Positions 7,619 through 63,634 of a stretch of 64,000 nucleotides of DNA are shown piece by piece. The DNA is from Fistulifera solaris (lineage: Eukaryota), in the NCBI GenBank assembly GCA_030295235.1, contig AP026167.1:372001-436000 (forward strand). The letters are read 5' to 3'. A program made the position numbers and the translations under genes. Under the pieces are notes generated by a model, which was not told the DNA's origin, did no database searches, and saw nothing but the letters and a program-made list of their open reading frames with translations. Positions within the stretch are counted from its first letter, which is position 1, and every line of letters starts with the position of its first letter.

Positions 7619-8436
7619 ATTTCTGGTATACGTCTGTGAAGGTGCGGCCTCAAGCCTCAATAAATCAGTAAAGGTGCCAAAGAAATAACAATCACAAAGA
7701 TAGAAACAAATTTGATGTGCATCATTTGAAGGACGACGTGCTGTCGACCTCATTACTATAGCCAAGTTTCCCTCTTTGTTCGTTAAGATTTTTTATCTTT
7801 GACAAATGATTACCTTCTTTCATATGAAGCTAAATCAGGCTTGTTTACGTGGAAAGCCTCAAAATGTAAATTAGATCTTTCGCCACAGGAATTCAGTCAT
7901 GAGAGACAAATCCTTCCCATCTCCTAAAACCGAAACCTTAATCGTGTCTATCACCTCGCCTCTCACTTTCTGGAGCCCGCGAAGCGCACGGCGCACCTAT
8001 TGCGTCCAAAATTGCGTCTCGTGAACAAAAGGTTTTAGCCACGGATGACGGATGCGGGGCATTTTCGTCGAGGAAGGTCATTGCTCGTGATTTCATAAGT
8101 GCGAAGTTGGCTAGTTAAATTTTTAGTATACTGATGGAAGTAAAAACAAGACCATGATTCTCCATCCAGGGACATTTCTGCTCTCGTGCACAAAGTGGCT
8201 GAGGTCTTAGGGGGAATCGATTATCGAATAGAAAGCACACTGTTGTTTCAAAATTCCGAAACCGGTACGTCGGACAAAATGGTGGATGCCCGCGTTCGCT
8301 CGCGATGCCTCGTCGACGACAAGTCAACAAAACTTGGTGGCAAATTGGGGAATGGTTCCAAATAAATGGATGAGCGAAAAACCACCATTTCAATACGAAA
8401 TACTCCTACAATTTACCATAACAATAAGCATTTACG

Positions 8437-9543
8437 ATGAAGTATACGCATCAGCTCTACTCCGCGCTTCTAATAGCTTTAATAAGGATCACATCAGCTG
8501 AAACAATACGTGGGGGAGTCACTGTGGAAGAGGGGAACATTTTAGAATATGACCGATCGCGTCTGTCGCGAATACTGAAACTGTTTCACAAGCAGTCGCG
8601 AAGAGCAATGCAGGGAAAAGAAGAGTATGATCCTGTATTTGATCAGCAATATGAAAAGCGGCAAGCAAATCTGGATCCAGCTTTGTTGTATTTCCCGAAA
8701 TTTATCCCCGTGTTTCAGATGAATCCTCCGACCCTGTCTCCGGCCCCTTCCACGCAAGGGCCTACCCTAATAAGCACTTCGAATCCTCCTTCAGCATCAA
8801 CTCCGACGGGTGGTGGTGCAACGCCTGCTCCCACATCTCCGACGAACAGTTTTACGACTGCACCGACTCCCGTTCCGACGGCGCCCTCCTTCGCTACCCC
8901 ATCACCGACCACGGGTGGTGTCACTTCTGCTCCTGCTCGTCCCACCATTTCGCCTAAACCAACACTCACGAACTCTCCTTCTGCCGTGAGTGTACCGATA
9001 CCGAGCACCCCTCCGTTGTTGACGAGTCTTCCGACGACTGGTGGAACGTTTGGGACCCCCACACCCGGAGTGACGGGTACGCCGACCTTTGGCCTCGGCA
9101 CGCCGGCACCGTCCATGGGTTCCGCCGTTCTTACCAGTACTCCGACATTTGCTGCGGCAACCACTTTAGCTCCTACTATAGCGAGCTCCATATCTTCGAC
9201 GACCGCGGGATCCATGAGTGCGGTGCGAATGTCGGTGCCGACATCTATGTCGCCAGTGGTGTCTTCTTTTCCGAGTATGGTTCCGACGTATTCGAGTGCG
9301 CCCATGTCTTCCTTGTTTCCGACACCGCCGTCGACTAGCGACGAACCTACGACTGGTTTGAGTAGTTTGGAGTCCAGTCAATCGTTGTTACCGACGTTAG
9401 ACAACTCGACGGAGGACGTCTCACAGCGATCAGAGGCTCTCTATTCAGAATCATTTCTTCTAGGGCAAAAGTCTTACTTAAAAGAGATGAAAATGGAGGA
9501 GTTTTGGTCCACGCTATTTCGACGTAAACAAGATCCTTCATAA
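8437..9543 (+). CDS. Secreted Pro/Thr/Ser-rich mucin-like protein A
   Basis: Signal peptide MKYTHQLYSALLIALIRITSA, RIL/RRAM basic sites, about 230 aa of PT/PS-rich sequence, charged C-terminal tail. Confidence 0.8.
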   Translation: MKYTHQLYSALLIALIRITSAETIRGGVTVEEGNILEYDRSRLSRILKLFHKQSRRAMQGKEEYDPVFDQQYEKRQANLDPALLYFPKFIPVFQMNPPTLSPAPSTQGPTLISTSNPPSASTPTGGGATPAPTSPTNSFTTAPTPVPTAPSFATPSPTTGGVTSAPARPTISPKPTLTNSPSAVSVPIPSTPPLLTSLPTTGGTFGTPTPGVTGTPTFGLGTPAPSMGSAVLTSTPTFAAATTLAPTIASSISSTTAGSMSAVRMSVPTSMSPVVSSFPSMVPTYSSAPMSSLFPTPPSTSDEPTTGLSSLESSQSLLPTLDNSTEDVSQRSEALYSESFLLGQKSYLKEMKMEEFWSTLFRRKQDPS

Positions 9544-10149
9544 CAAGTTTTCGGAGAAGGAAAAAGATTTGGGAGAGGTCTAGTTTTGCTGCTACAGATA
9601 GGAAAACAATCAGAATGAAACAATGATTTGCTATTGGATACGTGGTCAAGGTTGAAAAGAGGCGGTGCGTCTTGTCTAGTGGTCGAACATCCTATTTCCG
9701 CGACAAAACGTAACCGTAATTGTAAAGTTTACTAGATGTTCATGATGTTTGTTAGGAGTATAAGGTTTTAGGGCTTTGGCTAGAGTGGGTTGATGGTTCG
9801 CCTCGATGACCTGTGATTTCTTTTTTAGCTTGCATGTTTTGCAAAAAGCGCTCCCATTTCTCATAATCATAGCAATTGTCAACAAAACACACCGTAGTTT
9901 TTACTATCAAACCGTCGATGGCCGACCGGTATCTCGTTGTATAAATGAACGGAACAAAAATTTTGAAAAATGACCGCTGAGTACTGTGTTGTCAATTCTA
10001 CCGGAGTGCCATTTTCCATAATAATTATCACTATAGGATGAGAGGTACATTATTTTGTCACGTACCCGCCAAATGAGGTGACCACTTTTTGAAGCTAACG
10101 AAAAAATGTTGACATCCACAACGAAGCATTATAATAAAATGGAGTCACC

Positions 10150-12496
10150 ATGAGAAAGACGCTCACGGTATGCAACATGCTGCCGATATACCTAAAGCGG
10201 CTGTGGCTTCTTCTGATACCAGCTTTATGGATTATATGCGATGAAAACGGGTTTGAGCGGGCGCGGATGGCATTCACAAGCATATTCAATCCAATTCACA
10301 CAGAAACAGGTTGGAGCAACGATAAAATAGTCAAGCACGCTGATACAAAAAGAACCACACGGCGGGTGAGAGAGGAGAAGTACTGGCCTGATTTTGGAAA
10401 CAATTTATTTCGGACTTCGCCCTTCGCACACGATGAGCCAACTATGAGTCCCAGTGAGGAGAAAGTTCCATTCGCTGTCCCGGCATCGCCGCAAAATCAA
10501 GTGGAAAAAGGGAACCGAAATATTCCCGTCTCTTCGTCGTCTTTAACTGGTAGGTCCAAAATTGGGAAAACGTTATTCGAGAAAGATAATGGAGCGGAGA
10601 AGGCAAACCTCGACCATGATTCAAATGGAGCCAAAGTAGACATGCTGCCATCTCAGAATACGCATGACCAGTTCTCAGCCGTCCCAACACTAGTCATATC
10701 TCCTTTGATGTCTCCAACTCCTATAGAAGGTTCGGCTATGACAAACTTCAAACTGGAAACGACCTTGACATCGTTGTTTCAGCCTAGAGATAACGCAGAC
10801 CAGTGGGCAAGTGTCAAGAATTTAGCAGACGGCACAAACACAGCTGTCGGCTACGGCCCAACCAACGATCCTTCATATGTACCGAATCTAGCGCTTCCGC
10901 CATCCCGTCCTGCGGTATCGAATCTTGTGGATAAAGTCATCAGCTCCACAACTGCAAAGTATATTCGCTCTGAGTCTCCACATCTACCCATATCATACAA
11001 AGCATCTTCTTCAAAAAGGCATATGCTTCCCAAGGAAAGGGTACGGGGAAAGCGCAGACCTTAGAAAAATTATATAAATTGACAGAGAAATCGAAAGCGT
11101 CGTCGTCTGGAGAATACGATTCCAAACGAAAAGGGAAAGCATCTTACGGAAAGGCCAAAAATTCGAAAGGGAAGGGAGAGGCTTCCTATGGAAAATCAAA
11201 TAGTTCTAAAGGAAAAGGAAAATCGTCTAAAGGAGAGGGGAAAGGATCACGAAGCAAATCATCTAAAGGAAAGGGGAAAGGATCAGATAGCAAATCATCT
11301 GCATCGGGAAAGAAATCTTCAAAATCTGGCAAAAAGTCATCGAAAAGAGCAAGCCGAAAACGAAGGCACCAAATTCGAGCAATGTACCTAGCGTTATGCC
11401 GACTATTACAAGTGCTCCGACAAACACCGCGAGGCCGACGGGTGCACCTACTTCTAGTGTGCCGCCCACGATATCGCCCAGACCTACAGCTACAATATTG
11501 AGTGAATCTCCAAGCGCGAGCGTAATTAATGAGACGGACTTACCTTCTTCGTTGCCGACGAGCTTAGGCCAGTCTGTTGTCCCGACTATACTGCCTACTG
11601 CGAAACCAACTGGAGGAATAATAAGCACTTCTTCGCCGACTTTCGGATCAACTATCAGCTCCCTTCCAACGAAATTTCCAACAGCTCTCCCATCTGCCAC
11701 GCCTATTATTGGTTCTCGCGTGCCAACATCTGCGCCGTCTGTTGCCCCTTTCATTGATTCGCCAGAACCTTCTTCTCTGGAAAGTGAGGGCCCCACGTCC
11801 AATCCAAGTGCTTCTATCCTAGCACCTAGTCGTGCACCATCTTCCATAGCCAGTAGCACACCCAGTCTGACTGAAAGCACTGTTCCTAGCCAGACTTTGA
11901 GCATTGCTCCGTCATCTGCGCCGACTACCACAGTCCCATCTGATACACCGAGCAGTGGGTCGGAGCTGCCCTCAATATCACCTTCTACACCATGGCCTTC
12001 TGATGAACCTAGCGCAACACCAACAATAGATGAATCCGTTTCTCCAACTATTTCACCCAGTGGTCGGCCAAGTCTGAGGCCTTCGCCTTTTCCTTCACAG
12101 GGGCCCTCGACGGGACCTAGTATTGATCCGTCTCTCGAGCCGACCTCGCAACCGAGCGAAGGACCCAGTCGGCGCCCATCTGTCGAACCCAGTCTTTCTC
12201 CTACCTCTTCTCCATCGTCAAGTCCTAGCATCGACCCAACAAGTCAGCCAGTGGCAGCCCGAATTGGGGAAGAAGATTTTGATGCAGACTCGGATACTCA
12301 ATCTGAAGGACAAGAAGCAGGGTTTTTAGGAGGCGCAACTATTATTCGTCATGAGTCAACAGGACACGAACAAAAGTATGAGACTCAGTTGGGTGAAAGC
12401 GTACATCCCACTGACACGACACAGGTTATTCAGAGACAAACCCAAGGAGCCAGATCCTGGAACATAATTGGAAACAACAAAACGGGCGCTGGTTGA
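10150..12496 (+). CDS. Secreted/signal-anchored mucin-like protein B with silaffin-like Lys/Ser/Gly block
   Basis: Three ORFs join by restoring single As at about 11015 and 11345. Hydrophobic N-terminus, KSSKGKGK repeats (about 11085-11365), PxxxP PTS repeats, acidic tail. Confidence 0.8.
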
Positions 12497-12825
12497 AATA
12501 CGCTATGTTTCACTAAAAGAACGGATCTACTTTCGAAAGAGCAGATACTAAGAAGGCACTTCAACTCTTTAAAGGAGTCAGTGGCCATGTGACCTAGCGG
12601 TTTGACTGAGATTTCGATGTGCTGCGCCCGTCGCGTAGGTACTTTTTGGATGGAATTCAGTTGCGAAATGGAGAGCGTCGCTGTCTCATCAGCATGATGA
12701 ATATGCTAAAGGGAAACCATTTATATTATCATGTGTTTTCGCAACTCCGGATTCGCTTTAGTCTAAAACCTGGAAGCTTACGAACGAGTATACAAGTCCT
12801 AGCTAGAATGCTTGTAGCCTTCTAA

Positions 12826-13133
12826 GGGCCATTTCTAACCGGAAGTTTCGTATTTCGTATTTTCGTATTTCGCGTGCTCCCACACTTGCCCAATTTGCCC
12901 AAACGGGAGAGAAATGAAAAATAGAGAAGTTATCGTCTGTCACTTTCTCCGTAAAACCTTGGATACAAACGCAAAATGCGAAAATACGAATACGAAACTT
13001 CCGGTTAGAAATGGCCCTCAAAAATAAATAGAGAAGTTATCGTCTGTCACTTTCTCCGTGAAACCTTGGATACAAACGCAAAATACGAAAATACGAAAAT
13101 ATGAAATACGAAACTTCCGGTTAGAAATGGCCC
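12826..13133. mobile_element. Non-autonomous MITE, PIF/Harbinger (Tourist)-like, with duplicated right end
   Basis: TIR GGGCCATTTCTAACCGGAAGTTTCGTATT at 12826; its reverse complement ends at both 13017 and 13133. TAA flanks at 12823-12825 and 13134-13136 form the target-site duplication. Confidence 0.85.
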
Positions 13134-13573
13134 TAATCTTGCCCCCTCAAAACTGCGAAGATTCCAAGTTCGCCCTTCGCTACAGTGCGGAGTGCAGACT
13201 GACTGGATGAAACGAATTTTTTAATCAGTGAGGATCGATACAAGTAAGTTAGCGATAAATCTCTGTTACGGAGTACCCCCGGAGTAGTAGTTAACACAGT
13301 GAACAGCGTCGTCTTACGTAAGCCTTAAGCTGTTACTTGTCACTTTCACAAGTTAAAAGGGCTAGATCGATATCCCGAAAATGACTGAAGCCTACTGTAA
13401 GGATTACAGTTCCTAATGACTAGTGACTAAAACTTTCTACCAAGATCCGATAACAAGAAACGGGTTTCTTGTTTTCCGTCCACGGACATCACTTTTCGAA
13501 ATCTCGACGGCGGGCGCATTTGTTTCTTGTATATTAGCTGAACGAAAGCATCAGAATCATAAGAAATTAAGCC

Positions 13574-14715
13574 ATGGCAATCGCTCCTAGAATGAGAAAA
13601 GCACTTCTGCTCTGCGTGAGCCGATCGTGGCTTTTGCTTTTCCCAACTTTGTTGATCATGTGCAGTAAAAACGAGTTTGAGTGGGTTCGAAAGGATTTTG
13701 TGCATCATACATTTGGGCCAAATTTCCAAGAAGCCGGTCGAAGTCAGCATGACATACGGAGACACACAGGAGAATACAGCGGAAGACTCGACGAAGTATC
13801 CGAAGATGGATTTGACCAAAGTTCATGGCGTTTTCTCAATTCAAAGCCTTGGTCATCTCGCGCGGACGCACTGAATCCTGAGAGAACGCCTCCAAAGTTC
13901 AAGACCGAACGTCGTTTATCGAATATTTTCTACCGATTACATGACTCATCAAATCATGAGAAAACTACAAAGTCTGCAAAGTCTACCGGAAAGACTAAAA
14001 CACCGTCTTCCAAGAAATCAAGCGGCCCCACGAAGAAAGCAAAGTCACTTTCTGATACAGAACCCAAGAAAACGAAAGGCAAAGATACGAGCAGCGACAA
14101 CAACTCTACTAGTAAAATAGGAAAGGGAAAAAAGGAATCGAAAAAGAGTCAATCGACAAGGAACTCACCTGTGAGTGCACCCTCTCGGAGCGACAGATCT
14201 CCTGTAAAAGCTCCAGTCTTTATATGGAGGCCAATAGATCGTGAGCCCTCTCGGCCTCGTTCTCCAGCTCCAGTTGGAGTCCCGATGCAAGCTCCGGATC
14301 GAGTTCCGACTTCGACTTTAGCTCCAACTCCGACGATGACAACAGAACCTGGAAGTCCGCCGCCGGTTACCGAGAATGACAGTTCGTCTTCGTCGCCGAC
14401 CATGCTAACCGAAATTCCAACGATGAATTCAAGTCTGGGTTCTTCTGATTTTCCTACTTCACAAATGATTGCTCAACTCTCTCCTCGACCATCATCATCG
14501 AATCAGCCGAGTGCACTATCAAGTTTTGAGTCAACTATGGGATCCAGCGATGAGGCAAGTGATGTGCCTACTTTCTTTTTAGCGATCCACCATCTTTGCT
14601 ACAATCATTCTCTCCAACACGCGTCGGCAATTCGGAACGTCTTGATGAAAACCGTCGGAATGGGCAGAAGAAGTTTGCTTTCCGCAGCGAAAATTTGGAT
14701 AAGAAATGGGCATAG
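13574..14715 (+). CDS. Mucin-like protein C, paralog of B
   Basis: N-terminal RSWLLLFPTLLIMCSKNEFE vs B RLWLLLIPALWIICDENGFE; ERRL site, then a K/S/T-rich block, SPV/APV motifs and a PTS region. Probable frameshift in the T-run near 14575 (corrected stop 14713-14715; uncorrected ORF ends at 14803). Confidence 0.75.
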
Positions 14716-15513
14716 GCATTGTGCACTGCCCAAAAGGGTATCGCTATCATCCATTGGCATCACTGGCCTTGTCCAAGATGTAGACATTGCAATTAGAATT
14801 TGACGACTGATTTCATTTTTACTGAATAGAGAATATAATAAGGTATGGGTTTCCGCTGCTAATCAATCTCCATAATTTATCGACCTTGTCTTTGAAAGTG
14901 AATAGCAAGAGACTTCTTGTTATTATCAGACTATCGATGGCCGGACAATCATGACAATGAGATAACTGATGAGGGATGAGAGATGGGATTTTTGGACTCG
15001 GGACCAAAGCTCGGGTGTCGCATGCCGCCTCCTCTCCTCCCTTCCCTTCTAAATACTCAGTAATCGGGAATTGGACGATAACAGACATGCGGACAGACGA
15101 CAGACAGGATATGACACAAGAAAATAACACGTACCGGGTACCGGGTACCTGTACCACGTAGACACGGAGACACTGGACAGTAAACCGCGAAGTAGTAAAG
15201 AAATATACCGATTGCTTATTACTGCAGGGCAGAAAGGCGCGCCACCGAATGCTGCAAAGATTATTGCCCATAGGCCCAAGTTACATCCATTCCCGATTAT
15301 TTTCTATAAAGATTTTCCGTGGGTCCTGGTTCCTGGTCGTAAATCCTAGCTTTGGGCTTCCAATTTTAGTACTCCGCATGTTTTTTTTCCGTAGTAGGCT
15401 CACTGTTCACTCTTTCTCGACCAATTCAGACATCCGGTCACCTTTTCTCGAACACTTTTCCAAAACAACGAAAATAATTCCACCACGATTGCACCAACGA
15501 CGAAAACGAAACG

Positions 15514-18500
15514 ATGTTGATGGCGCTCAAAGCATCAAACGTGATAATGATTTGCCTTTTGATACATCTATGGTGGATCTTGATGGTGTCATCAAGTGCT
15601 GTCGAAAAAACAGATACGACAGCGGCCTCGAAGTCAACTATTATTTCACAAACACCAGGACGCGTCGGCAGAGGGTTTTATTCCAACGAACCGACACGAC
15701 GAAAACAAGCCACCGGTGTAGTGTACGCAGATCTCGTATGGAGCCCGCTAAATGAATATTCATCTTTCAGGAATTTTCCGACTTTAGCATCTCAACTATC
15801 CAGCCCCGATGACCCTGATATTAAGGATGCATCTCCTAGATTGACGACCAGTCAACGAGCACTCTCTGAACGTTTCCTTAAAGGCAAAAATACGTCGACA
15901 ACAACTGGAAACAACAAGACCAAGACGTCATCGGGGAAAGGGAAAATCTGCGTCTCCTGGAAAGTCGACTCAACCCGCAAAAAAGACGAAGGATACGAAA
16001 GGTAAAGACAAAAAGTCGGGCAGCAAGTCAGAAAAATCGGACAAGAAGAATAAAAAAACTGATGATGGGAAAATGGGAGCAAAGTCACCAGTTCGTTCGC
16101 CAGTTCGGTCACCGGTACGGTCGCCAGTTCGATCCCCGGTGCGCTCACCGGCAGGCTCGCCAGTTCGCTCGCCAGTACGCCCGCCAACTCGAATGTTTCA
16201 GGATAAAGCCCCAACATTCATAAAAAGAATAATAGAGTTCGTACCCACAGTGCTTGAGGAGCTTCCAACTTTAAGAACCCCGCGAGAAACAAAGGCCCCG
16301 GTCATTGAAGACAGAACACCTACCTTGAAGCCGTCAAGCTCCCCGAGCGAGTCACCAAGTCGCTCGCCGATAAAAGACCATCTTCGGCTCCGTCTCGAGA
16401 TCCCACGCCTGCACCGAGCGTTCGTCCTTCTGCTTCACCGATTGTACGGCCAAGTGCTGCACCTACAAGTCAACCATCGCCTTCACCGACTGACAACCCG
16501 ACTGTAGCACCAAGCGACAAACCAACAAGTGGGCCAACCAATGTGCCCAGCATGAATCCGACCTCGAAACCGAGTACCCTGCCGACTGATCGACCGAGTC
16601 GTCAACCAACAACAAGTCCTTCGCGAAAGCCGAGCTCTGAACCAACAACCCAACCGTCCAGCTCTCCCACTGTGTTGCCTAGTAGCACGCCGACACAAAA
16701 GCCTTCTCAATCGCCATCGCGAGTACCAACGCCAGAGCCAAGTGTCGGACCTTCTCCTTCACCCACCACAGAGCCAAGTTCTGTTCCAACAGCACTGCCA
16801 TCAAAATCACCGACTGCTGGCCCAACTGTCGTACCAAGTATGAATCCGACTAGAATACCGAGCAATGAGCCAAGTACAGAACCGTCAGTGACACCGACAG
16901 AAGTTCCCTCGCTATCGCCGAGTATTCAACCAACAATTGGACCTTCGCGGAAACCTTCGAGTGCTCCCTCAACGAATCCTTCGACATCGCCTACGTTCAA
17001 TCCAAGTGCTGCTCCCACCACGCCGCCATCGAGAAGCCCAACAGACAATCCGACGGTTTCTCCTAGTAGGAATCCCACCACGGTACCAAGCAGTGGACCC
17101 ACCATGACTCCGACATCATCACCAAGCGCAGTCCCAATTGCTTTGCCGAGCCATCAGCCCACAACCGGTCCCTCTCGTGAACCTTCCGTGGCTCCTTCTC
17201 TCGGTCCTTCTGTTTCGCCCACGTCAAAACCGAGCGCTTCACCCAGTACTTCACCGTCGACTTCGCCTACAAAGACCCCTTCAGCATTACCGACTATTCA
17301 ACCAACACCTGTGCGAAGTGCGGTGCCCAGTTCAGATCCGACCGTTTCGCAGTCGCCGACATCGCCACAAAGCGCAGTTCCATCTGTATCACCGAGCCAC
17401 AATCCCACAACCGTTCCATCGGGCGAAGCTTCGATGGCACCGAAGTCTTGAACCCTCCGCATCAACAATACCGAGCGCTTCACCCACTACGTCACCATCG
17501 ATTTCGCCTACAAAGAACCCCTCCGAAGTACCGAGTGTGCAACCAACTTCAGGAGGAAATGGGGTGCCCAGTTCCGTTCCGACCTTGTTGGTGTCGCCGA
17601 CATCATCACAAAGTGCAATCCCATCTGTATCACCGAGCCGAAACCCTACAGATGGTCCATCGGGAGAAGATTCGATGGCACCAAGTTTTGGACCTTCTGT
17701 TTCGTCCAGAACGAGACCTTCCGTGGCTCCTTCTCTCGGTCCTTCTGTTTCGCCCACGTCAAAACCGAGTACTACGCCATCGGTTCGTCCTTCAACTGAA
17801 CCGACTCGCAACCCGTCTGTTGTACCGAGTATACTGCCGACCAGTGTTCGAAGTGCAGTGCCGAGTTTAGATCCGACCGTGTCGCCGATCATCGTTCCGT
17901 CTGTTCCACCGAGCCGTCAACCTACAATAGTCCCTTCCATGGAGCCCAGCGTTGAACCGACTGTAAAGGCATCCAGCACACCCAGTCTATCGCCTAGTAG
18001 ACTTCCAACTGCAAAACCTTCTTCGTCTCCGTCGCAAGAGCCCTCACCGGCACCGAGCATTCGTCCTTCGGCTTCGCCGACGACGAATCCGAGTGCTGTA
18101 CCAACAAGTCCTCCCTCGACGTCACCGACAGATAGCCCAACCATTCTGCCAAGTTCAAGACCGACAGCTGTGCCAACCATTATGCCGAGCATGAGTCCGA
18201 CGTCAAAACCGAGCGTTGTACCGACTAATCAACCGAGTCAGCAGCCCACCAGAGGCCCTTCCAGAGAGCCCAGCACAGGGCCGACAACTCAGCCATCCAG
18301 CTCTCCAACCATGTCACCAACTATCGTTCCAACTCAGCAGCCATCACGCTTACCATCTCGAGTGCCATCACTAGAGCCTTCAGAGGGTCCTACTTTCGAA
18401 CCATCTGCGTCGCCTACAGCAAGTCCAAGTAGTGTACCTACTGCACGACCCTCTACTACACCAACGGATGGACCGACCGTTGCACCGAGTATAGGGCCAA

Positions 18501-21237
18501 CCAGTGCCCCAAGCAATAAGCCATCAGAAAAGCCGTCATCGTCGCCAACCGCAAGCCCAACTATTTCCCAAAGCGATCAGCCCACAAAAGGACCTTCGAG
18601 GGAGCCTTCGAGTGCTCCAACAACGGTACCTTCAGTCACGCCAACGTCAAGACCGAGTGCTGTTCCTACTTCTCGACCATCGACTAGCCCGACAGAGAAT
18701 CCGACCGTCGCACCTAGCATGAATCCCACGAAAGAACCGTCTAGTGAGCCTACAATAATTCCGACTTCGGCACCAACAATAGTCCCATCCAGTACGCCGA
18801 GCCGTCAGCCCACATCCGGTCCCTCCCGCGAACCTTCGGCGGCGCCTTCTCCTGATCCTTCGGCTTCGCCCACGTCAAGACCGAGTACTACGCCATCGGT
18901 TCGTCCTTCAGCTGAACCGACTCGCACCCCGTCTCTTGTGCCAAGCCTCTTGCCAACTTCTGTTCGAAGTGCCGTCCCCAGCTCAGATCCGACCGTGTCG
19001 CCGAGCATCGCCCCGTCTGTTCCACCGAGCCGTCAACCAACGACAAGACCGAAGCGTCGCACCAACAAGTCCTCCATCGATGCTTCCGACAGCTAGCCCG
19101 ACGGTAACACCAAGTGCGAGACCGACAAGTGGACCAACGGCTGTACCGAGCATGAGTCCGACAACAAAACCGAGCGCAGTCCCAACAGTACAGCCAACTC
19201 GTCAACCGACTACAAGTCCTTCAAAAGAGCCCAGCGCCGAGCCTACAATCCAGCCGTCTCGCTCTCCGACGGTGTCGCCTACTAGTGTTCCGACGCATCA
19301 GCCATCACATTTACCATCGAGACAGCCTTCGCCAGCACCGAGCGCCGAACCATCCGTTTCGCCCACTTCGCGACCTAGTACTATCCCAACTGCACGACCA
19401 TCGGGTGCTCCAACAGATGGGCCGACCGTTGCACCAAGTACGAGGCCTTCCAGTGAACCAAGCAGCCAGCCGAGTACGAAACCGTCATCGTCTCCGACTC
19501 AAGGTCCGACAGTTTCACCGAGCACTCAACCCACAAGAGGACCTTCAAAAGAACCATCGTCTTCACCGAGCAGCCAGCCCACAAAAGGACCTTCGAGGGA
19601 GCCTTCGAGTGCTCCAACAACGGTACCTTCAGTCACGCCAACGTCAAGACCGAGTGCTGTTCCTACTTCTCGACCATCGACTAGCCCGACAGAGAATCCG
19701 ACCGTCGCACCTAGCATGAATCCCACGAAAGAACCGTCTAGTGAGCCTACAATAATTCCGACTTCGGCACCAACAATAGTCCCATCCAGTACGCCGAGCC
19801 GTCAGCCCACATCCGGTCCCTCCCGCGAACCTTCGGCGGCGCCTTCTCCTGATCCTTCGGCTTCGCCCACGTCAAGACCGAGTACTACGCCATCGGTTCG
19901 TCCTTCAGCTGAACCGACTCGCACCCCGTCTCTTGTGCCAAGCCTCTTGCCAACTTCTGTTCGAAGTGCCGTCCCCAGCTCAGATCCGACCGTGTCGCCG
20001 AGCATCGCCCCGTCTGTTCCACCGAGCCGTCAACCAACGACAAGACCGAGCGTCGCACCAACAAGTCCTCCATCGATGCTTCCGACAGCTAGCCCGACGG
20101 TAACACCAAGTGCGAGACCGACAAGTGGACCAACGGCTGTACCGAGCATGAGTCCGACAACAAAACCGAGCGCAGTCCCAACAGTACAGCCAACTCGTCA
20201 ACCGACTACAAGTCCTTCGAAAGAGCCCAGCGCCGAGCCTACAATCCAGCCGTCTCGCTCTCCGACGGTGTCGCCTACTAGTGTTCCGACGCATCAGCCA
20301 TCGCATTTACCATCGAGACAGCCTTCGCCAGGACCGAGCGCCGAACCCACAACTTCGCCCACTTCGCGACCTAGTAGTATCCCAACTACTGGACCAAGCG
20401 CCGAACCCACAACTTCTCTTCCCACTTCGCGACCTAGCACTATCCCAACTGCACGACCATCGGGTGCTCCAACAGATGGGCCGACCGTTGCACCAAGTAC
20501 GAGGCCATCCAGTGAACCAAGCAGCCAGCCGAGTACGAAACCGTCATCGTCTCCGACTCAAGGTCCGACAGTTTCACCGAGCACTCAACCCACGAGAGGA
20601 CCTTCAAAGGAACCAAGCGCCCAACCAACAACAAAGCCCTCTACAGCTCCAAGCTTTTCACCCAGTAGTAGTCCGACCAAGAAACCTTCGCAAGCACCAT
20701 CGCGAGAACCTTCACCGGGGCCTAGCATCGAACCTTCGTTTGCGCCAACGTCGAGTCCAAGTAGTCGGCCATCTCTTTCGCCGACCGACAGCCCAACCGT
20801 TTCTCCAAGCACGAAGCCAACCAGTGCTCCTAGCCGAGCACCAAGCTCAAAACCGTCGGCTACTCCGAGCAGAAGACCGTCGTCGGCGCCTTCTGAGGCT
20901 CCAACAAAATCCCCTTCTGAGGCTCCATCCGTCGCACCAACTATGAAACCGAGTAGCTCACCGGTTGTAGGCGGACGCCTCTTGGAAGAAGAGACAGTTG
21001 TGGAAGATGGAGAGTCGTTTGAAGGATGCAAAAGCAAAATTCGAGCCTCATTCGATAAACAAAATGAATTTGTCAATGACGTTGCCGCTGAAATAGAGGA
21101 TAGCGTCGATATTCAAACAGAAGGAAGGGAATCTCTCTAGATTGCCGCTTGATGACACAGCTCAAAGTCGTGAAGGGAACAGACGTCTAGCCCGATTATT
21201 TGATATTATAAGAAAGCGAAAGAAAGCAACTGTTTAG
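15514..21237 (+). CDS. Giant secreted mucin-like protein D (~1900 aa after frameshift repair)
   Basis: Hydrophobic leader, QRALSERFL, K-rich block, (SPVR)n, about 4.6 kb of P-S/T-x-x tetrapeptides, then GGRLLEEE acidic tail. 1-bp frameshifts near 15945, 16373, 17445 and 19052. ORF-track stop at 21140; removing one G near 21128 extends it to 21237 (..GNRRLARLFDIIRKRKKATV). Confidence 0.8.
18578..20613 (+). repeat. Near-identical ~1-kb internal tandem duplication in gene D
   Basis: 18578-~19555 recurs at 19575-~20613 (offset 997, i.e. 996 = 332 codons plus one indel). A few SNPs and an extra ~60-nt subrepeat in copy 2. Confidence 0.9.
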
Positions 21238-22627
21238 AGTCGCCCCAATGGGATGTAAAACAAAGAGGATTCGATGAGCGTGAATAATTCGGTCTTTCGC
21301 CGTCTTGTCATGTCATTTCACTCCCGACGGTTCGACCCACTCCAGATATACATGATCGTTATATTTTTGACTCCAAAGGCGAAGGCAAAAAAATATTCGA
21401 ACTGAATGGGTTACCTGGTAATGCAATGCCTTAACAGCAATGCATGTTCCGCAGCAAAACGTTCGGAACGATTTTGGCGGAGGAAAAAAAAAAACACAAA
21501 CAAAATAACTAAAGCCGGGTGTCGCATGCCAGAAACCCTGTCCTTAATGAATATTCAAATACATGCTTCTTGAATGAAGCATGAACTGCATAATAGTGGT
21601 TTAATAATGGAAGAACTGTATAACAATACCTGGTATAGTCAGTGATCTAAATTTAAACAATTTTCTTCGTGAAGCCACCGAAGAACTGAATGCTCCGAGA
21701 GGGGCACGTTGAACAAGCGGCGCTCTCTTTTCAAAATTAAAAACAAAGTGGGAGTAGACATTCACTCATATCCGCCATCCGTAACAAAACCATGCTTCGC
21801 TTTAGATTAGCACCATTCGGCCATTTCATTAGACCAAACACACATACTAGGACCTACGACCTACCAGTTACTGGTACTGTCCCTATCGGTAATACTTCAA
21901 AGATAATCTTACTCGCCCCTTGCTCTAAACTCTACATGAGTGATGAGTGATGAACGATGAAGGGGAAGCATGACGATTGACGAGTGACGAGTGGCAATGA
22001 TTTAGCTATGATTTGCAACATTACAACGCTTCGTCCTATAAACAGTTTCAGTTGCTTTATTTCCACACTTTTCATCCAACTTGGAACATCAACACAGAGT
22101 AAATCATCTCAAGCTTTCTTCTTATGAGCCTTAAGCCGAGATATCCGTAAGGCTTACCATTAAGGTTAGAAATATGTTTTCAAGACACTACAATGACCAA
22201 TTAACTGATGACCGGCCGTTTCTGGTTACTTTAAATGACATTTGAGTGTGCGCTAATACATTTTGTTCGTGCATGTAAATACCCATTTCTCTTTTGGGTA
22301 CACGAAAACTTATATTGTTCACGCCCTGTTTGCTTGCAATAGTTTGGAATTAAGGTGTAACAACGGCTATTCTCAACTTCTTGGCTTTCCCTACATTGAC
22401 TTCGTGGTCGTAGAACTAAACTCTTGCTTCTCTAGGGTACTAATATTGAAAGGCAATTACGAACTTTTGTATTAAGTACAATTCTGTTCCCTGTTTCCTG
22501 TGTCTGTGGGGAGCCGGGATTTTTTTCGCGATTCCGAAATCAGGTCACCTTTTCACGGACGCGTTTTGCGTCGGTCGATTGGACGAAGAAAATTATTTTC
22601 GCCCTGTAAACAACCAAGAGAACATCC

Positions 22628-25600
22628 ATGAGGACAGGAAATTGGACCATGATAGTGGCGCGCAAGCTAGGAAAAATGCAATTCACTTATCTTTTAGTAA
22701 CAATAATGTGGATGTTGACAGGGTCATCCAGTCCTACGGAAAGCGGTAGTTCGTCAGCTCTGACATTAATTTCACGACCGACCGACGGCCTCGGCAATGA
22801 GAAAGCGTCAAGTCAACAGAGATCCACAAGCGGGCTGCACGCAAATCAACAATCAAGTCCGGTGACTGACTTTACTGAGGCTCTTTCTTTCCCGACTCAA
22901 CAGCCGTCACTTGCTGTTGAGCTCAATCAAATGAGAACGATTCCAACGTCGACAACCAGTCAACGAACACTGACTGATCGTTTCTTAAAAGAGAAAAAGG
23001 AAACGAAATCAAGCTCTAGCGGCAAGAAAAATAAACCAGCAGGAAAAGACAAGACAAACAACCAGAAGGGAAAAGGAAAGCAGTACTCAGATAGTAAATC
23101 AAGCAAAAGAGCAAAAGTTCAACGGGTAAAGGAAAGAAAGGAGCGACAGCCCCCGTGCGCTCGCCAGTTCGCGCTCCTGTTCGTGCACCAGTTCGCTCGC
23201 CAGTTCGTGCACCAGTTCGCTCGCCAGTACGCCCGCCAACCCGAATGTTTCAGGATAAAGCCCCAACATTCATAAAAAGAATAATAGAGTTCGTACCCAC
23301 AGTGCTTGAGGAGCTTCCAACTTTAAGAACCCCGCGAGAAACAAAGGCCCCGGTCATTGAAGACAGAACACCTACCTTGAAGCCGTCAAGCTCCCCGAGC
23401 GAGTCACCAAGTCGCTCGCCGATAAAAGACCATCTTCGGCTCCGTCTCGAGATCCCACGCCTGCACCGAGCGTTCGTCCTTCTGCTTCACCGATTGTACG
23501 GCCAAGTGCTGCACCTACAAGTCAACCATCGCCTTCACCGACTGACAACCCGACTGTAGCACCAAGCGACAAACCAACAAGTGGGCCAACCAATGTGCCC
23601 AGCATGAATCCGACCTCGAAACCGAGTACCCTGCCGACTGATCGACCGAGTCGTCAACCAACAACAAGTCCTTCGCGAAAGCCGAGCTCTGAACCAACAA
23701 CCCAACCGTCCAGCTCTCCCACTGTGTTGCCTAGTAGCACGCCGACACAAAAGCCTTCTCAATCGCCATCGCGAGTACCAACGCCAGAGCCAAGTGTCGG
23801 ACCTTCTCCTTCACCCACCACAGAGCCAAGTTCTGTTCCAACAGCACTGCCATCAAAATCACCGACTGCTGGCCCAACTGTCGTACCAAGTATGAATCCG
23901 ACTAGAATACCGAGCAATGAGCCAAGTACAGAACCGTCAGTGACACCGACAGAAGTTCCCTCGCTATCGCCGAGTATTCAACCAACAATTGGACCTTCGC
24001 GGAAACCTTCGAGTGCTCCCTCAACGAATCCTTCGACATCGCCTACGTTCAATCCAAGTGCTGCTCCCACCACGCCGCCATCGAGAAGCCCAACAGACAA
24101 TCCGACGGTTTCTCCTAGTAGGAATCCCACCACGGTACCAAGCAGTGGACCCACCATGACTCCGACATCATCACCAAGCGCAGTCCCAATTGCTTTGCCG
24201 AGCCATCAGCCCACAACCGGTCCCTCTCGTGAACCTTCCGTGGCTCCTTCTCTCGGTCCTTCTGTTTCGCCCACGTCAAAACCGAGCGCTTCACCCAGTA
24301 CTTCACCGTCAACTTCGCCCCACAAAGACCCCTTCAGCATTACCGACTATTCAACCAACACCTGTGCGAAGTGCGGTGCCCAGTTCAGATCCGACCGTTT
24401 CGCAGTCGCCGACATCGCCACAAAGCGCAGTCCCATCTGTATCACCGAGCCACAATCCCACAACCGTTCCATCGGGCGAAGCTTCGATGGCACCGAGTCC
24501 TGAACCCTCCGCATCAACAATACCGAGCGCTTCACCCACTACGTCACCATCGATTTCGCCTACAAAGAACCCCTCCGAAGTACCGAGTGTGCAACCAACT
24601 TCTGTAGGAAATGGGGTGCCCAGTTCCGTTCCGACCTTGTTGGTGTCGCCGACATCATCACAAAGTGCAATCCCATCTGTAAACCCTACAGACGGTCCAT
24701 CCGGAGAAGATTCGATGGCACCAAGTTTTGGACCTTCTGTTTCGTCCAGCACGAGACCGAGCGCTACACCCACTTCGTTACCATCGACTACCCCGTCCGC
24801 AGTGCCGAGTATCCAACCAACACCTGTTAGCAGTGGGATACCAAGCTTGAACCCGACCTCGTCGCTGAGCAAACGACCGACGTCAGCTCCTTCTAGAGGA
24901 CCAAGCGGTGAGCCGACCATCGCTGAGTCCGGCTCTCCTAGCCTCTCCGAGTAGACTTCCCACAACCGCACCATCTATTGCCCCGTCACGAACCTTCCCC
25001 AGGACCGAGCATTGGCCCTTCGCCATCACCGACGTCACAGCCGACTGTTGGACCCACTAGCCGTCCATCCATTTTGCCTACGGACAATCCAACCATAACA
25101 CCAAGTACCATACCAACAAGTGGGCCGACAATTGTACCCAGCATACATCCGACATCAGAACCGAGCGTTGTGCCGACAGATGCACCGAGTCGCCAGCCGA
25201 CTACAGGCCCTTCGAGAGAGCCTACTGCAAGGCCGACAATCCAGCCGTCCAGCTCTCCTACCGTGTCACCAAGTAGCATTCCGTCTCAGCAGACATCAAA
25301 CTCGCCGTCGCGAAGAGCCTTCCCCAGGGCCTAGCGTCGAACCAACTTTCTCGCCAACATCGAAACCGAAGTTCTGCACCCACCATCCGACCGTCAAGTT
25401 CACCGACTGATGGGCCGACTAATGCACCGAGTATGAATCCAACCGGTTTACCAAGTCAAGAACCGAGCGTGAAGCCGTCTTCTTCTCCAACAGAAGGTCC
25501 GTCATTATCACCGAGCCGTCAGCCGACAGAAGAACCGTCGATGGAACCTACGGTTGCTCCGTCAAACGGTCCTTCGTCCTCGCCAACGTCACAACCGGAA

Positions 25601-27206
25601 GCGCTGCACCCACTTCTCTTCCATCGATTGCCCCAACTGAAAGTCCAACTGTCACGCCAAGTTTGAACCCGACAAAGGTGCCAAGCAATGGGCCCACAAT
25701 GACGCCGACCTCGTTACCGACAACAGTCCCATCCTCAGCGCCGAGCCACAAGCCCACGGACGGTCCATCGCAAGTAGCTTCGGTGGCACCCAGTCGTGGG
25801 CCTTCTGTTACACCCACAACAAAACCGAGCAGATCGCCGACTACTCAACCATCGATATCACCGACGGATACCCCGACTGTTGTGCCCACTTTGCTGCCAA
25901 CTCCTGTAAGAAGTGGAGTGCCCAGTACAGACCCAACCTTGTCGCCGAGCATCGTTCCAACTGTTCCGCCGAGCCATCAACCGACGACGACCCCTTCGAT
26001 TAGGCCCAGCGGTGAGCCGACTTTATCAGGGTCGAACTCTCCTAGCGTCTCTCCAAGTAGACTTCCAACCGCAAAACCATCTATTGCTCCGTCCACGAGG
26101 ACCTTCGCCGGGACCGAGCATTGGTCCTTCGCCATTACCGACGTCGCAGCCGAGTGATGGACCAACAAGTCCTCCATCGATGCTTCCGACAGCTAGCCCG
26201 ACGGTAACACCAAGTGCGAGACCGACAAGTGGACCAACGGCTGTACCGAGCATGAGTCCGACAACAAAACCGAGCGCAGTCCCAACAGTACAGCCAACTC
26301 GTCAACCGACTACAAGTCCTTCAAAAGAGCCCAGCGCCGAGCCTACAATCCAGCCGTCTCGCTCTCCGGACGGTGTCGCCTACTAGTGTTCCGACGCATC
26401 AGCCATCGCATTTACCATCGAGACAGCCTTCGCCAGGACCGGCCGAACCCACAACTTCGCCCACTTCGCGACCTAGTAGTATCCCAACTACTGGACCAAG
26501 CGCCGAACCCACAACTTCGCCCACTTCGCGACCTAGCACTATCCCAACTGCACGACCATCGGGTGCTCCAACAGATGGGCCGACCGTTGCACCAAGTACG
26601 AGGCCATCCAGTGAACCAAGCAGCCAGCCGAGTACGAAACCGTCATCGTCTCCGACTCAAGGTCCGACAGTTTCACCCGAGCACTCAACCCACGAGAGGA
26701 CCTTCAAAGGAACCAAGCTCAACCAACAACAAAGCCCTCTACAGCTCCAAGCTTTTCACCCAGTAGTAGTCCGACCAAGAAACCTTCGCAAGCACCATCG
26801 CGAGAACCTTCACCGGGGCCTAGCATCGAACCTTCGTTTGCGCCAACGTCGAGTCCAAGTAGTCGGCCATCTCTTTCGCCGACCGACAGCCCAACCGTTT
26901 CTCCAAGCACGAAGCCAACCAGTGCTCCTAGCCGAGCACCAAGCTCAAAACCGTCGGCTACTCCGGAGCAGAAGACCGTCGTCGGCGCCTTCTGAGGCTC
27001 CATCAAAATATCCAACTTTCTCACCGTCGACTATATAAAGCACCAAATTGTCGAGTCAAGTGATAGTATTGAGCCGTCGCTCAGAAGTTGATCTCGACGA
27101 GGAAACAAAATGGTCTCGACGAGGAAACAAGATGGCCAATCTAGCTCAAGATGGCGTCTACGTTTCAATAGACTTAGCTGAGGATCTGAGCCTACCGCTC
27201 AGTTGA
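22628..27206 (+). CDS. Giant secreted mucin-like protein E, paralog of D
   Basis: Leader YLLVTIMWML, TTSQRTLTDRFLK vs D TTSQRALSERFLK, K-rich block, (S/A)PVR repeats, PTS array with many 1-bp frameshifts. TAA at 27036-27038, but the same frame stays open with an acidic tail to TGA at 27206. Confidence 0.75.
23212..24758 (+). repeat. Near-identical copy of 16160-17718 (gene D) inside gene E
   Basis: Offset 7052; identical ORF translations (16543 vs 23595; 16463 vs 23515). Confidence 0.92.
26161..27002 (+). repeat. Near-identical copy of 20057-20903 (gene D) inside gene E
   Basis: Direct sequence match from ACCAACAAGTCCTCCATCG to TCTGAGGCTCCA. Confidence 0.9.
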
Positions 27207-27742
27207 ATAAGTCACGGTGGACAAGCTTAATGGAAAGACGTTTCCGTGAATTCAAAAGCTTACGTTTTTGTGTGAACGTTGCAAAATGACGTGGACGTCA
27301 CACACGGAAAACTACTTTAGTGACGCAAGAAAGCTTTCACGAGTGATGACGTGTATGATATGCACAAAGCCATGAAAGAAAGAGAATAAGACAACTGGTT
27401 GTTAAGGAAGATTGTATCATAACAACATGAATGAATCATCATTCATGAACATCTTAACATCATTGCTCCTCACTCGATTATTCCTCACCCAGGATTTTCG
27501 AACAAATCGAAGTCACCGTGCCCGTCAAACCCTATTCTTAATTCGAAAAGTTCATAAAATGAACCCGCTTAACAGACGATGCATCTTGTAGTTCCGTACC
27601 AGGTATCATATATAATAATACTCCGTAACATTTCATAATAAAAGAGACGACTAAACATTTTTTTCTGTTGTAAAATACGACATAACACGGGATGGATACA
27701 TAGTACGGATAACTTGATATGCCTATATTCTTCTTCACTGAA

Positions 27743-29225
27743 TTAAGGAGCCGCCGCTTCGGTCTTTTCTTCGGCTAGTTTGACACTCTTGGGATCCAAA
27801 TCCGCACACGCTTCCGCACGCTTCTTGTTCCAGAAGGATGCTGGCAAGATCTTCTGTGGGTTGCACCGGCTCTTGTATTTCTTCACGACTTCTGTCACTT
27901 CATCGAACAAACCCGTGTCCAAGGTAATGGGGTCCAGACCGAGGTTGCAGAACTTTTTGTTGGACACGTCGAGCTCATTCTCATCGGCTTCCTGACGAGG
28001 ATTCGGGATATAATTGACTTCCACTCCCGTCAATTTGGCGACCAAGTTGGCAATGTCCCGAACACGTCGTGTTTCGGCGACTTGATTGAAGATCTCTACG
28101 CGATCACCTGGCTTGGGGGGGATTGTTGATGGCGAGTTCAATGCAGCGAGCCGTGTCAGAGATATGAATGAAAGCCCGAGTCTGACCTCCAGTACCGTAG
28201 ACAGTAAGAGGAACGCCCATGGCACCTTGCATCAAGAAGCGGTTCAGCACAGTACCGTAGTCTCCGTCGTAATCGAATCGGTTGATTAAGCGTTCATCGA
28301 GAGCGGTCTGAGGAGTGTTCGTTCCCCAAACAATACCTTGATGCAAGTCTGTCACACGAAGCTGATCGTTTTTATTGTAAAATTGCCACAAAAGCGCATC
28401 CAAACACTTGGTAGCATGATAGACCGATCCGGGATACGCCGGGTGCAGAATGTTGGATTCGCGTCCTCCCGGGAGAATGACATCAATGTATCCTTCCGGA
28501 ATTTCACCACCCGAAGTGCCGTAACCGTACACACCCATGGTACCCAAATGAACAATGTGCGCATCGACACCGCTGTCAATCACCGCACAGCACAAGTTGT
28601 TGGAACCACCGACGTTGTTGTCGACCGTGTAGCGCTTGGTTTTCGATGTCTTCATAGAATAAGGAGCAGCACGCTGTTCCGCGAAATGAACGATCGAGTC
28701 GGGCTTTTCCTTCTCGATCAATTGAACGAGGAGATCGTACTCCTTGGCGACATCGAGATTGACGAAACGAATATCTTTTCCGGTCACCTCTTTCCATGCT
28801 TGGCAACGGACCTGCAGGGGAGAGCGAAGAGAAGGAAAGCAATGGGTGAGATAGTTATCATCTTTCAATAGAGAAAACGATTCTCCGCTTGCATGTAAAA
28901 AGAAAACCAGATGAATGAAGAAAAACTGCTCGATGAGACTGACCTCCATGGGTTGAATCGGTGTCAAAGAATCGCAACCCAACTCTAGATCGATATTTCT
29001 GCGAGACAAGTTATCTACGACCACAACATCGTGTCCTTGATCAGAAAGGTACAAACTAGTAGGCCAGCCGCAGAAACCATCACCTCCAAGAACGAGAATT
29101 TTCTTGGGTGCGGCGGAGCCATTGGCTTCAGCAAACAATGCCGACGAGGAACGAGGAACACTCGTCTTGGGCACAGAGAAAGACACGACGGCCTGTAACA
29201 AACTAGCCCAGATAATGATCTTCAT
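27743..29225 (-). CDS. SQD1: UDP-sulfoquinovose synthase, plastid-targeted
   Basis: ILVLGGDGFCGWPT, HFAEQRAAPYSMK, HLGTMGVYG, YHATK, DLHQGIVWG, RFDYDGDYGTVLNRF. Bipartite leader MKIIIWASLLQAVVS-F. Intron 28943-28812; frameshift in the G-run at about 28115-28121. Confidence 0.95.
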
Positions 29226-29714
29226 TCTTATTAGTTTTGTTGAATACAGATAAATTACTTCAATTTGGCAATCGTCAAACTTAAAGTAGACAACAGCAAA
29301 GAGATGAAACTCTTGCCACCGCGCGGGGATGATGTGCAAGCGGCGGCAGAAATGTCGAAGGTCGAGTGCTCTCACTCGTCTGTGCATGCGACGTTGAATC
29401 TTGATACTTTTCGCGTGTGTGGCTTGCGGCGCGGCTTTTGGTCGAGTGCGTAAGTAAGCGCGCCGGGCTCGTTTAAACCCTGTACGACAGGATGTATCAA
29501 ATGAAATAATTCACAAAAACCAGTGCGATGAATAAAATAAAACGGATGGACACGGAAACAACGGAGAACCATCCTTCGTCCTGAAAGCTTGATGAGTACC
29601 ATGTGATATTACCATAATGCATTTACTATCAGCATTGTTTGCCATACACACCCTCAATTCTTTGTTTTTTCGAAATCAATGCACCCCACCAATTGAAACG
29701 GATCGTAATCACGG

Positions 29715-63400: not shown

Positions 63401-63634
63401 GAACCCGTAAGCGTGGATATCGGTCTCTTGTTTCTGGGCATTGGTGAAGTTGATACAATAGATGAAATGACTTTAAGTGGCAACCAAAAGTGGGAATCAT
63501 TGCAGAAGACTAAGCTGCCATGGTCAGGCGAAACTGGTAGCACTTCAGACAAGGATACTTCAAACAAGGGTAATATGGTTGTCTTGCGCCCAATGGAAAT
63601 CAGGACGTTTCACGTCACCGTAAAGGCACAATAA
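60424..63634 (+). CDS. GH38 lysosomal/vacuolar-type alpha-mannosidase
   Basis: HSHDDVGWLKT, GWQLDPFGHS, MGEDF, WTGYFTSR, QHHDGVSGT, FYTDSNG, NFYPVN. Intron 61294-61364; frameshift near 63272. Confidence 0.95.

Follow-up and report, generated by a model that had tools for sequence, protein, structure and literature searches.

Here, we describe an array of five genes (named A to E) in a 64,000-nucleotide stretch of eukaryotic DNA from Fistulifera solaris (contig AP026167.1 of assembly GCA_030295235.1, positions 372,001 to 436,000 of the forward strand; ~45% G+C), in the following called the window. The genes are arranged head to tail on the + strand from position 8437 to ~27035, and four of them (B, C, D and E) code for related proteins in which a hydrophobic leader and a Lys/Ser-rich, silaffin-like block precede a region rich in Pro, Thr and Ser (PTS region). 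Our preferred reading, to which we assign a probability of about 0.5, is that the array encodes lineage-specific, secreted, intrinsically disordered glycoproteins of the wall or surface, whose P[ST]xx rods of graded length would be fixed to silica by a silaffin-type head. Secretion, cleavage, silica targeting and glycosylation are properties that we infer by comparison with characterised proteins. The conserved motif cassette, the strict tetrapeptide rod on a silaffin-like head and the tandem series of graded length with signs of recent sequence exchange are new features.

Gene array and reading frames

An earlier interpretation made from the letters alone (below: the sequence-only reading) had proposed five genes on the + strand, and all five were located there. 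They are listed below; the protein lengths of B to E, in amino acids (aa), are those after correction of the reading frame.

Gene A, 8437-9543 (+): single open reading frame (ORF) of 368 aa that needs no edit; hydrophobic leader, N-terminal part of ~64 aa with RIL, 244-aa PTS region and charged tail, no Lys block
Gene B, 10150-12496 (+): 782 aa after two corrections (A after 11012; A after 11342); leader, unique N-terminal part of ~275 aa, Lys/Ser/Gly block, PTS region of ~300 aa and acidic tail (VAARIGEED..)
Gene C, 13574-14715 (+): ~380 aa with a single edit, inferred at a T run near 14570
Gene D, 15514-21140 (+): 1874 aa after four single-base corrections; leader, 85-aa N-terminal part, Lys block, SPVR seven times, hydrophobic motif, 1547-aa P[ST]xx rod and acidic tail
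Gene E, 22628-27035 (+): ~1470 aa after ~12 corrections; possibly extends to 27206

The true end of gene E is uncertain because beyond its stop codon (27033-27035) an acidic stretch continues in the same frame to 27206. Comparison of the regions upstream of the five genes gave no convincing common motif, only matching patches of 24-36 nucleotides (nt).

In the window as given gene A alone is a single ORF; B, D and E are spread over two to seven overlapping frames and C reads on into a non-repetitive tail that reaches 14803. The contigs of four public short-read runs (X1-X4) were compared with positions 8000-27500. Run X1 covers every bin (depth 6-123) and behaves like genomic DNA; the cover by X2-X4 is patchy, and its gaps (gene A, most of gene C) were not counted as evidence. 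Within these 19.5 kb the contigs differ from the window by ~25 indels, 12 of which are itemised, and most of the itemised ones that were inspected lie at runs of A, T or C (homopolymers). Over gene A an X1 contig spans 8595-9510 without any difference. For gene B both edits needed (2/2) are present in contigs, and they join three frames into the one ORF of 782 aa. The four edits that unite the frames of gene D into an ORF ending at 21140 are a dropped base at 17443 (seen in X2, X3 and X4), a change near 15940 that agrees with a one-gap contig, an A after 16371 that agrees with a one-gap contig and with an indel at the matching place in gene E (23423), and a change at 19052 deduced from the internal duplicate of D itself. 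The single edit of gene C was deduced from the only relative found, an unnamed 355-aa NCBI protein (here P0001) that is 67% identical to C over 326 aa. Since it matches the tail of C in the other frame (..SDPPSLLQSFSPTRVGN..), gene C ends at 14715 and not at 14803, and the window ORF reaching 14803 is a frame error. Among the ~12 edits of gene E five are itemised in contigs, five were deduced from D, and two are unplaced shifts that fall in 25277-25331 and 25423-25663.

The apparent frameshifts of B to E are assembly indels at homopolymers, and the genes are intact once these are corrected. Outside the array, conserved genes (aldehyde dehydrogenase, GH38 mannosidase, trypsin-family protease and DUF6824) are likewise split between overlapping frames; the breaks therefore reflect the assembly and not the array genes. 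The sequence-only reading had asked for a check of the breaks against short reads; the contigs correct them, and real frameshifts are therefore not supported. As homopolymer errors are frequent, gene calls from this assembly will be fragmented.

Many frame breaks in the window as given, the ~12 corrections demanded by gene E with five of them itemised in reads, and 98% identical tracts common to D and E (see below) could also be expected from decaying pseudogenes or from an assembly artefact with collapsed or duplicated repeats. Such an origin of the array is very improbable. The contigs correct the breaks at homopolymers and housekeeping genes are broken alike; X1 contigs run across the N-terminus of E itself (21513-23271) and across an E-specific part of its rod (25018-26066) with no substitutions and with two and four indels, respectively; and P0001 retains an intact ORF that is colinear with C.

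Modular architecture of the encoded proteins

Proteins B to E have a module order in common that runs from the hydrophobic leader over a variable N-terminal part to a Lys/Ser-rich block, a PT-rich region and a charged tail. In C, D and E it can be given in greater detail: the leader is followed by ~80 poorly conserved residues, the motif RxL[ST]x[IR]F, the Lys block, (S/A)PV(R/K) motifs (seven in D, seven in E, one in C), the motif APxFI[KW]R[PI]I, the Pro/Ser/Thr region and the charged tail. The RxL[ST]x[IR]F motif lies at residues 113-115 in all three proteins and directly before the Lys block; in P0001 it reads RSLSNIF and again immediately precedes this block. The following features were located:

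13910-13930 (+): motif RRLSNIF of C, RxL site just before the Lys block
15856-15876 (+): motif RALSERF of D, counterpart of RRLSNIF of C
22964-22984 (+): motif RTLTDRF of E, counterpart of RRLSNIF of C
11064-11371 (+): Lys/Ser/Gly-rich block of B, ~105 aa, 30% Lys, 28% Ser, net charge +27, the richest of the set
13955-14155 (+): Lys/Ser-rich block of C, 24% Lys and 22% Ser over 82 aa counted from the RxL motif
15874-16084 (+): Lys-rich block of D, 29% Lys over 76 aa counted from the RxL motif
16085-16180 (+): SPVR repeat of D, 7 motifs
23149-23238 (+): SPVR repeat of E, counterpart of the D repeat
14210-14236 (+): motif APVFIWRPI of C
16208-16234 (+): motif APTFIKRII of D
23260-23286 (+): motif APTFIKRII of E

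Most of this grammar had been recognised by the sequence-only reading. The RxL sites it named (RRL in C, RAL..RFL in D, RTL..RFL in E) are present, as is the GRLLEEE tail of D, which forms part of VVGGRLLEEE... Its full order for C, D and E holds for the modules, only the term Pro-periodic being weak for C. It had assigned to B a Lys-rich block and a PTS region with no clear RxL, and indeed QTL (QTLEKLY) stands there at the place of the RxL motif. Protein A likewise has the described RIL (at residue 45) and PTS region and no Lys block. Residues 44-54 of A (8567-8599; ..SRLSRILKLF..) resemble RRLSNIF and RALSERF of C and D, 70 residues nearer to the N-terminus and with no Lys block after them. 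From this resemblance A may belong to the family as a distant member whose Lys block was lost.

The Lys/Ser blocks of B to E contain 24-32% Lys; those of C, D and E are 59-82 aa long and have a net charge of +16 to +17. The N-terminal parts are near neutral (net charge -2 to +3), Cys does not exceed two residues per protein, and Trp and Tyr make up 0.1-1.6% and 0.2-2.5%, respectively. Scheffel et al. (2011) screened for silaffin-like proteins by at least 18% Ser and at least 10% Lys per 100 aa, together with a signal peptide for the endoplasmic reticulum (PMC3478156). With these Ser and Lys limits in 100 aa, B (32% Lys/28% Ser), C (22/22), D (22/18, only once frame-corrected) and E (16/19) are retained and A is not. 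Among the 134 six-frame ORFs of the window with at least 100 aa just four pass, namely pieces of B, C and E and the tail of the trypsin-family protease gene, which is the only ORF outside the array to do so. Stretches resembling pentalysine clusters (five Lys within 12-14 aa), after merging, number two in B, two in C, one in D, one in E and none in A, and each of B to E has 7-10 KxxK with clusters like those of lysine-enriched regions (LERs). By published compositional criteria B to E are silaffin-like, in line with the silaffin likeness that the sequence-only reading had seen in the Lys-rich heads; A is not.

A hydrophobic core opens each of the five proteins (Kyte-Doolittle mean of 1.9-2.6 in 12 aa), and a later membrane-type segment, sought by hydropathy, was found in none of them (highest 19-aa mean 1.05). 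By hydropathy and inspection, a plausible leader cleavage site with small residues is seen in A, D and E; in B and C the hydrophobic core ends in an invariant Cys, which is not a classical one. Lys-rich blocks beside S-P-x-R repeats recall the tails of linker histones and the consensus site of cyclin-dependent kinases, from which one might think of non-secreted basic proteins (e.g., H1-like chromatin or nucleolar proteins) with the SPxR repeats as kinase sites. This is hardly conceivable given the leader on all five proteins, and rods of 1200-1550 aa with the P[ST]xx pattern as well as acidic tails are without counterpart in chromatin proteins.

Proline periodicity of the PTS regions

The PTS regions differ in length and in the regularity of their Pro residues, here expressed as the autocorrelation of Pro at lag 4:

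C: PTS region of 93 aa, Pro lag-4 autocorrelation ~0.1
A: PTS region of 244 aa, Pro lag-4 autocorrelation ~-0.1
B: PTS region of 303 aa, Pro lag-4 autocorrelation 0.46
E: PTS region of ~1220 aa, Pro lag-4 autocorrelation 0.79
D: PTS region of 1547 aa, Pro lag-4 autocorrelation 0.86

In D and E Pro thus occupies every fourth residue across 1200 to 1550 aa, and 353 of the 410 Pro residues of D start a P[ST]xxP step. With a value of only ~0.1 or less, C can hardly be called Pro-periodic. Tandem Repeats Finder reported no DNA array of period 12 over the PTS regions, so the tetrapeptide pattern is maintained in the protein and does not stem from recent slippage. Pfam recognises the PT repeat (PF04886; gathering threshold 26.2 bits) in the piece of D at 18783-21137 (E-value 2.5e-79, 260.9 bits, 11 stretches), and the piece of B stays below the threshold with 18.3 bits. 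PF04886 is a “PT disordered repeat”, i.e. a compositional repeat class, and the match to D is no evidence for common descent or for a function.

Relationships within the array and the search for relatives

The sequence-only reading had paired B with C and D with E by their N-termini. This pairing is borne out with 41% identity over 64 aa (E-value 1e-10) for B and C and, more weakly, 30% over 122 aa (E-value 4e-8) for D and E. Its family of five has to be reduced to four members (B, C, D and E) because A resembles the others in composition only, with no significant similarity to C beyond that. The rods of D and E tell a different story from their heads. From the SPVR repeat onward E 23212-24758 and D 16160-17718 share 98.5% DNA identity (1.56 kb), and E 26161-27009 and D 20057-20910 share 98.3% (0.85 kb). 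Moreover, D contains a duplicate of its own:

18578-19391 and 19575-20387 (+): internal tandem duplication of ~1 kb in D, matching over 0.8 kb with 98.8% identity

That old heads are joined to nearly identical rods suggests recent exchange between D and E, by gene conversion or unequal crossing-over within the repeats.

Outside the array the searches brought up a single relative. Residues 1-135 of C, searched against 5.8 billion clusters, matched P0001 only, which is colinear with C through every module. Searches for longer proteins gave no hit for the N-terminus of D (0 of 461 candidates scored) or of B (0 of 1465 candidates). A profile of the N-termini of B, C and P0001 had no match at an E-value of 0.001 among 1.84 billion representatives, a search in which even P0001 was not recovered, and with this profile a metagenome scan yielded 159 pattern matches and no relatives. 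With the segment of D from the Lys block to the hydrophobic motif the scan returned 38 loci; the six inspected contain only a low-complexity run of SPVR type, and none of the matches listed for the 38 extends past query residue 106. The ESM Atlas gave no usable match for A and C, a sequence search of the PDB none for the N-terminus of B and for C, and Pfam detected no domain in the N-terminal parts, its sole match being the compositional PT repeat in the rods. The AlphaFold model of the B N-terminus, computed from a single sequence, has a mean predicted local distance difference test score (pLDDT) of 48.9; only helices within the leader region (first 78 residues) were modelled with any confidence, which is low beyond residue 80. 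This weakly fits disorder. The family may accordingly be called undescribed, as had been proposed, and the globular domains that the sequence-only reading had not recognised (e.g., GDPH, frustulin) did not appear in Pfam, the PDB search or the motif check. According to one report, homology searches miss such diatom wall proteins across species since they are disordered and fast-evolving (10.1101/2021.09.18.460806).

Comparison with known diatom proteins

To our knowledge, the SPVR repeats and the APxFI[KW]R[PI]I motif have not been described before, and the rod of D is far longer than any silaffin that we know of. Proteins B to E resemble the silaffins (Sil1p of Cylindrotheca fusiformis, tpSil1-4 of Thalassiosira pseudonana) in their leader, N-terminal part and Lys/Ser-rich polycationic region, in passing the Ser/Lys screen and in their stretches similar to pentalysine clusters, which in T. 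pseudonana target silaffins to silica (PMC9650480). In silaffins, cingulins, frustulins and silacidins RxL is probably recognised by a processing endopeptidase (PMC4557024). The motif stands just before the Lys block in C, D, E and P0001 (B having QTL), where cleavage is predicted only. In Sil1p the leader is followed by an N-terminal part with many acidic residues and, from residue 108 onward, by basic repeats (PMC3820600). The order in C, D and E is comparable, but the N-terminal parts of the array proteins are near neutral. Further differences are the single Lys block of 60-105 aa instead of RxL-flanked repeats and the strict P[ST]xx tetrapeptide pattern of the rod with up to 1547 aa. The array proteins have no sequence homology to silaffins; silaffins of different species share none among each other (PMC4557024). 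Biochemically, silaffins are characterised by tight association with biosilica, polyamine- or methyl-modified lysines, phosphoserine and an effect on silica precipitation. In T. pseudonana the high-mass silaffins are strongly glycosylated and have dihydroxyproline, hence a Lys-rich part combined with a glycosylated part bearing dihydroxyproline is not new in kind (PMC3820600, PMC4557024). Because both building blocks belong to known kinds and diatom genomes commonly contain silaffin-like candidates, the array is not categorically new.

The second group for comparison are cingulins and frustule proteins with LERs from T. pseudonana (CinW2, CinY2, Tp12162, Tp5357). The array proteins share with them the leader, KxxK clusters, RxL motifs and lack of a membrane segment, and the block of B (..KSSKGKGKGSDSKSSASGKKSSKSGKKSSKK..) looks like the LERs given in Table 1 of PMC9650480. 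In cingulins KxxK regions alternate with Trp- or Tyr-rich regions (PMC4557024); the array proteins have no such alternation and only one Lys block each. Frustulins are marked by acidic Cys-rich (ACR) domains and pleuralins by PSCD domains. Neither was found in the array, where Pfam gave no such match and Cys occurs at most twice per protein.

The third group are trail and surface proteins of raphid diatoms, among them CaTrailin4, Ca5609 and CaFAP1 of Craspedostauros australis and the Amphora GDPH proteins. Leader, modularity, restriction to diatoms and long, disordered, presumably O-glycosylated PTS-rich regions are common to them and the array. A further likeness is that trail proteins were found properly only with long-read assemblies (10.1101/2023.03.06.531300). 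They exceed 1 MDa, in contrast with the much smaller array proteins, which have a Lys/Ser block in place of the trail modules. A CAA (PF20597), vWA or Cys-rich module was not detected in the array by Pfam and Cys count, and GDPH, sought only as a four-letter motif, is absent.

Proposed function and alternative explanations

In the mechanism that we favour, B, C, D and E would share a cassette whose signal peptide leads the protein into the secretory path. The variable N-terminal part is probably a propeptide that would be cut off at RxL[ST]x[IR]F in C, D and E, exposing the polycationic Lys/Ser block. Like the pentalysine clusters and LERs of silaffins and cingulins, this block would direct the protein to forming silica and hold it there, with the P[ST]xx rod (~100 to 1550 residues), probably hydroxylated and O-glycosylated, projecting from the silica as an organic coat. 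Rod lengths may have diverged by duplication and by exchange between repeats, as suggested by the internal duplicate of D and the 98% identical tracts of D and E. Gene A would code for a neighbouring PTS-rich secreted protein without the cassette.

The contigs give a hint that two of the genes are transcribed. In one X2 contig a run of untemplated A begins ~100 nt past the corrected stop of gene C, where the window reads TTTTTA:

14815 (+): probable poly(A) site of C, 19 untemplated A after this base

Contigs of X2-X4 also tile gene D in pieces between 15661 and 20903 and carry the correction at 17443. Given that the RNA nature of these runs is guessed, we take the data as a hint of transcription of C and D. 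None of the joints (introns) listed for 8000-27500 lies inside a gene, and a loose end of X2 before 15910 matches nothing in the window and thus gives no sign of an intron.

Several points weigh against the silica-anchored interpretation. The tie of the array proteins to silica is predicted from likeness to characterised proteins, and in T. pseudonana frustule targeting did not always require lysine-enriched regions, nor did these always suffice for it (PMC9650480). Compared with cingulin-type LERs, the Lys blocks of the array have Thr, Asp and Asn and fewer Ser-Gly runs, B being closest (PMC9650480). Protein B is without the Arg of RxL, a plain RxL is expected by chance about one to two times in a protein of this size (estimated from residue frequencies), and the extended motif RxL[ST]x[IR]F was defined after seeing these sequences. 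Finally, a single relative (P0001) is too few to gauge conservation across diatoms, and that runs X2-X4 are RNA is a guess of the program used.

The same architecture would also suit secreted adhesive or mucilage proteins (of trail, pad or capsule) that are released and not bound to silica, the Lys block binding anionic polysaccharides or surfaces and the PT rod serving as glycosylated tether. The trails of raphid diatoms are indeed built of long, modular, PTS-rich secreted proteins for which heavy O-glycosylation is expected, the trail material has a high content of Ser, Thr and dihydroxyproline, and with 3.5 Å per residue the 1547-aa rod of D would span ~0.5 µm (10.1101/2023.03.06.531300). 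Lys-rich repeats occur, moreover, in a cell-surface protein of Amphora (PMC4220933). We regard an adhesive role as the main alternative, possible but tentative: the known domains of trail proteins are missing (no CAA, no GDPH motif, at most two Cys per protein), and nothing in the sequence analysis points to gliding or adhesion. The sequence-only reading had left the choice between adhesion and wall scaffold open when it suggested precursors that yield a polycationic head on a glycosylated rod. Of that reading, intact genes, modular grammar, silaffin-like composition and the lack of a known globular domain are supported; the hallmarks of trail proteins (CAA, GDPH, Cys-rich repeats) are absent.

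PT repeats (PF04886) are a compositional class that recurs in many unrelated secreted proteins. The array could represent generic PT-rich glycoproteins of the secreted or cell-surface type – a protective or hydrating coat, a matrix of auxospores or gametes, a decoy for grazers or pathogens – with a Lys block unrelated to silica. The array shows no homology to any characterised silica protein, and its family evolves fast and is confined to one lineage, which is frequent among surface proteins under diversifying pressure. Nevertheless, this explanation seems unlikely, as four paralogues and P0001 combine leader, RxL motif and Lys/Ser block in the order of silaffin precursors, and the neighbouring protease has the same kind of tail.

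Neighbouring genes and other features of the window

The trypsin-family protease has a hydrophobic leader, an RRL site (SFRRLKS), a PT-rich linker and a Lys-rich tail:

30299-31847 (-): trypsin-family protease gene; an assembly indel divides it between two overlapping frames

Two kinds of low-complexity module are thus common to this gene and the array, of which it is not a member; judged from these modules the protease may be targeted to the wall. The idea that it is the RxL endopeptidase was dropped. We take its specificity position, by chymotrypsin numbering and read across the uncertain frame break, to be Asp, which means cleavage after Lys or Arg and not after Leu.

The other conserved genes that are each split between overlapping frames are:

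36143-36885: DUF6824 gene
37863-39358: aldehyde dehydrogenase gene
60409-63631: GH38 alpha-mannosidase gene

Between B and C, at 12557-13207, the depth of X1 rises up to 123 (~20 elsewhere), with joints and loose ends. This region includes a direct repeat (12919-13018 and 13026-13134, 90% identical) and is probably a dispersed repeat. At 28104-29387 (-) lies an SQD1-like NAD epimerase gene with an in-frame stretch in the middle that resembles an unspliced intron; its product begins MKIIIWASLLQAVVS|FSVP.., i.e. with a signal peptide followed by Phe. We take this leader (..AVVS|F..) to be ASAFAP-like, as in proteins sent to complex plastids. An ORF with a match to Methyltransf_16 (lysine methyltransferase; E-value 2.8e-9) is found at 50824-51996 (-), 24 kb from the array, and any link of it to lysine-modified wall proteins would be pure speculation.

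Significance

The organic layers around diatom silica have yielded few known proteins so far, mostly from one or two model species. In this assembly genes like those of the array resemble pseudogenes until the homopolymer indels are polished, so annotation pipelines are likely to miss or truncate them. A bolder view, which we consider doubtful, is that the Lys/Ser block together with RxL[ST]x[IR]F forms a portable wall-targeting cassette of this lineage, with a related Lys-rich tail on the neighbouring protease, and that silica-anchored brushes set the thickness of the organic casing, tuned by unequal exchange between repeats. If true, a length-graded set of glycoproteins would use rods of ~100 to 1550 residues, extending up to ~0.5 µm, and the duplicate in D together with the 98% identical tracts of D and E would be the way in which this lineage tunes its casing. 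In any case the array is a natural series with the same head, rods of ~100 to ~1550 residues and a headless neighbour A. With it one could readily test whether the Lys/Ser block is enough to target a protein to the wall in a pennate-type genome, and what the P[ST]xx rod contributes.

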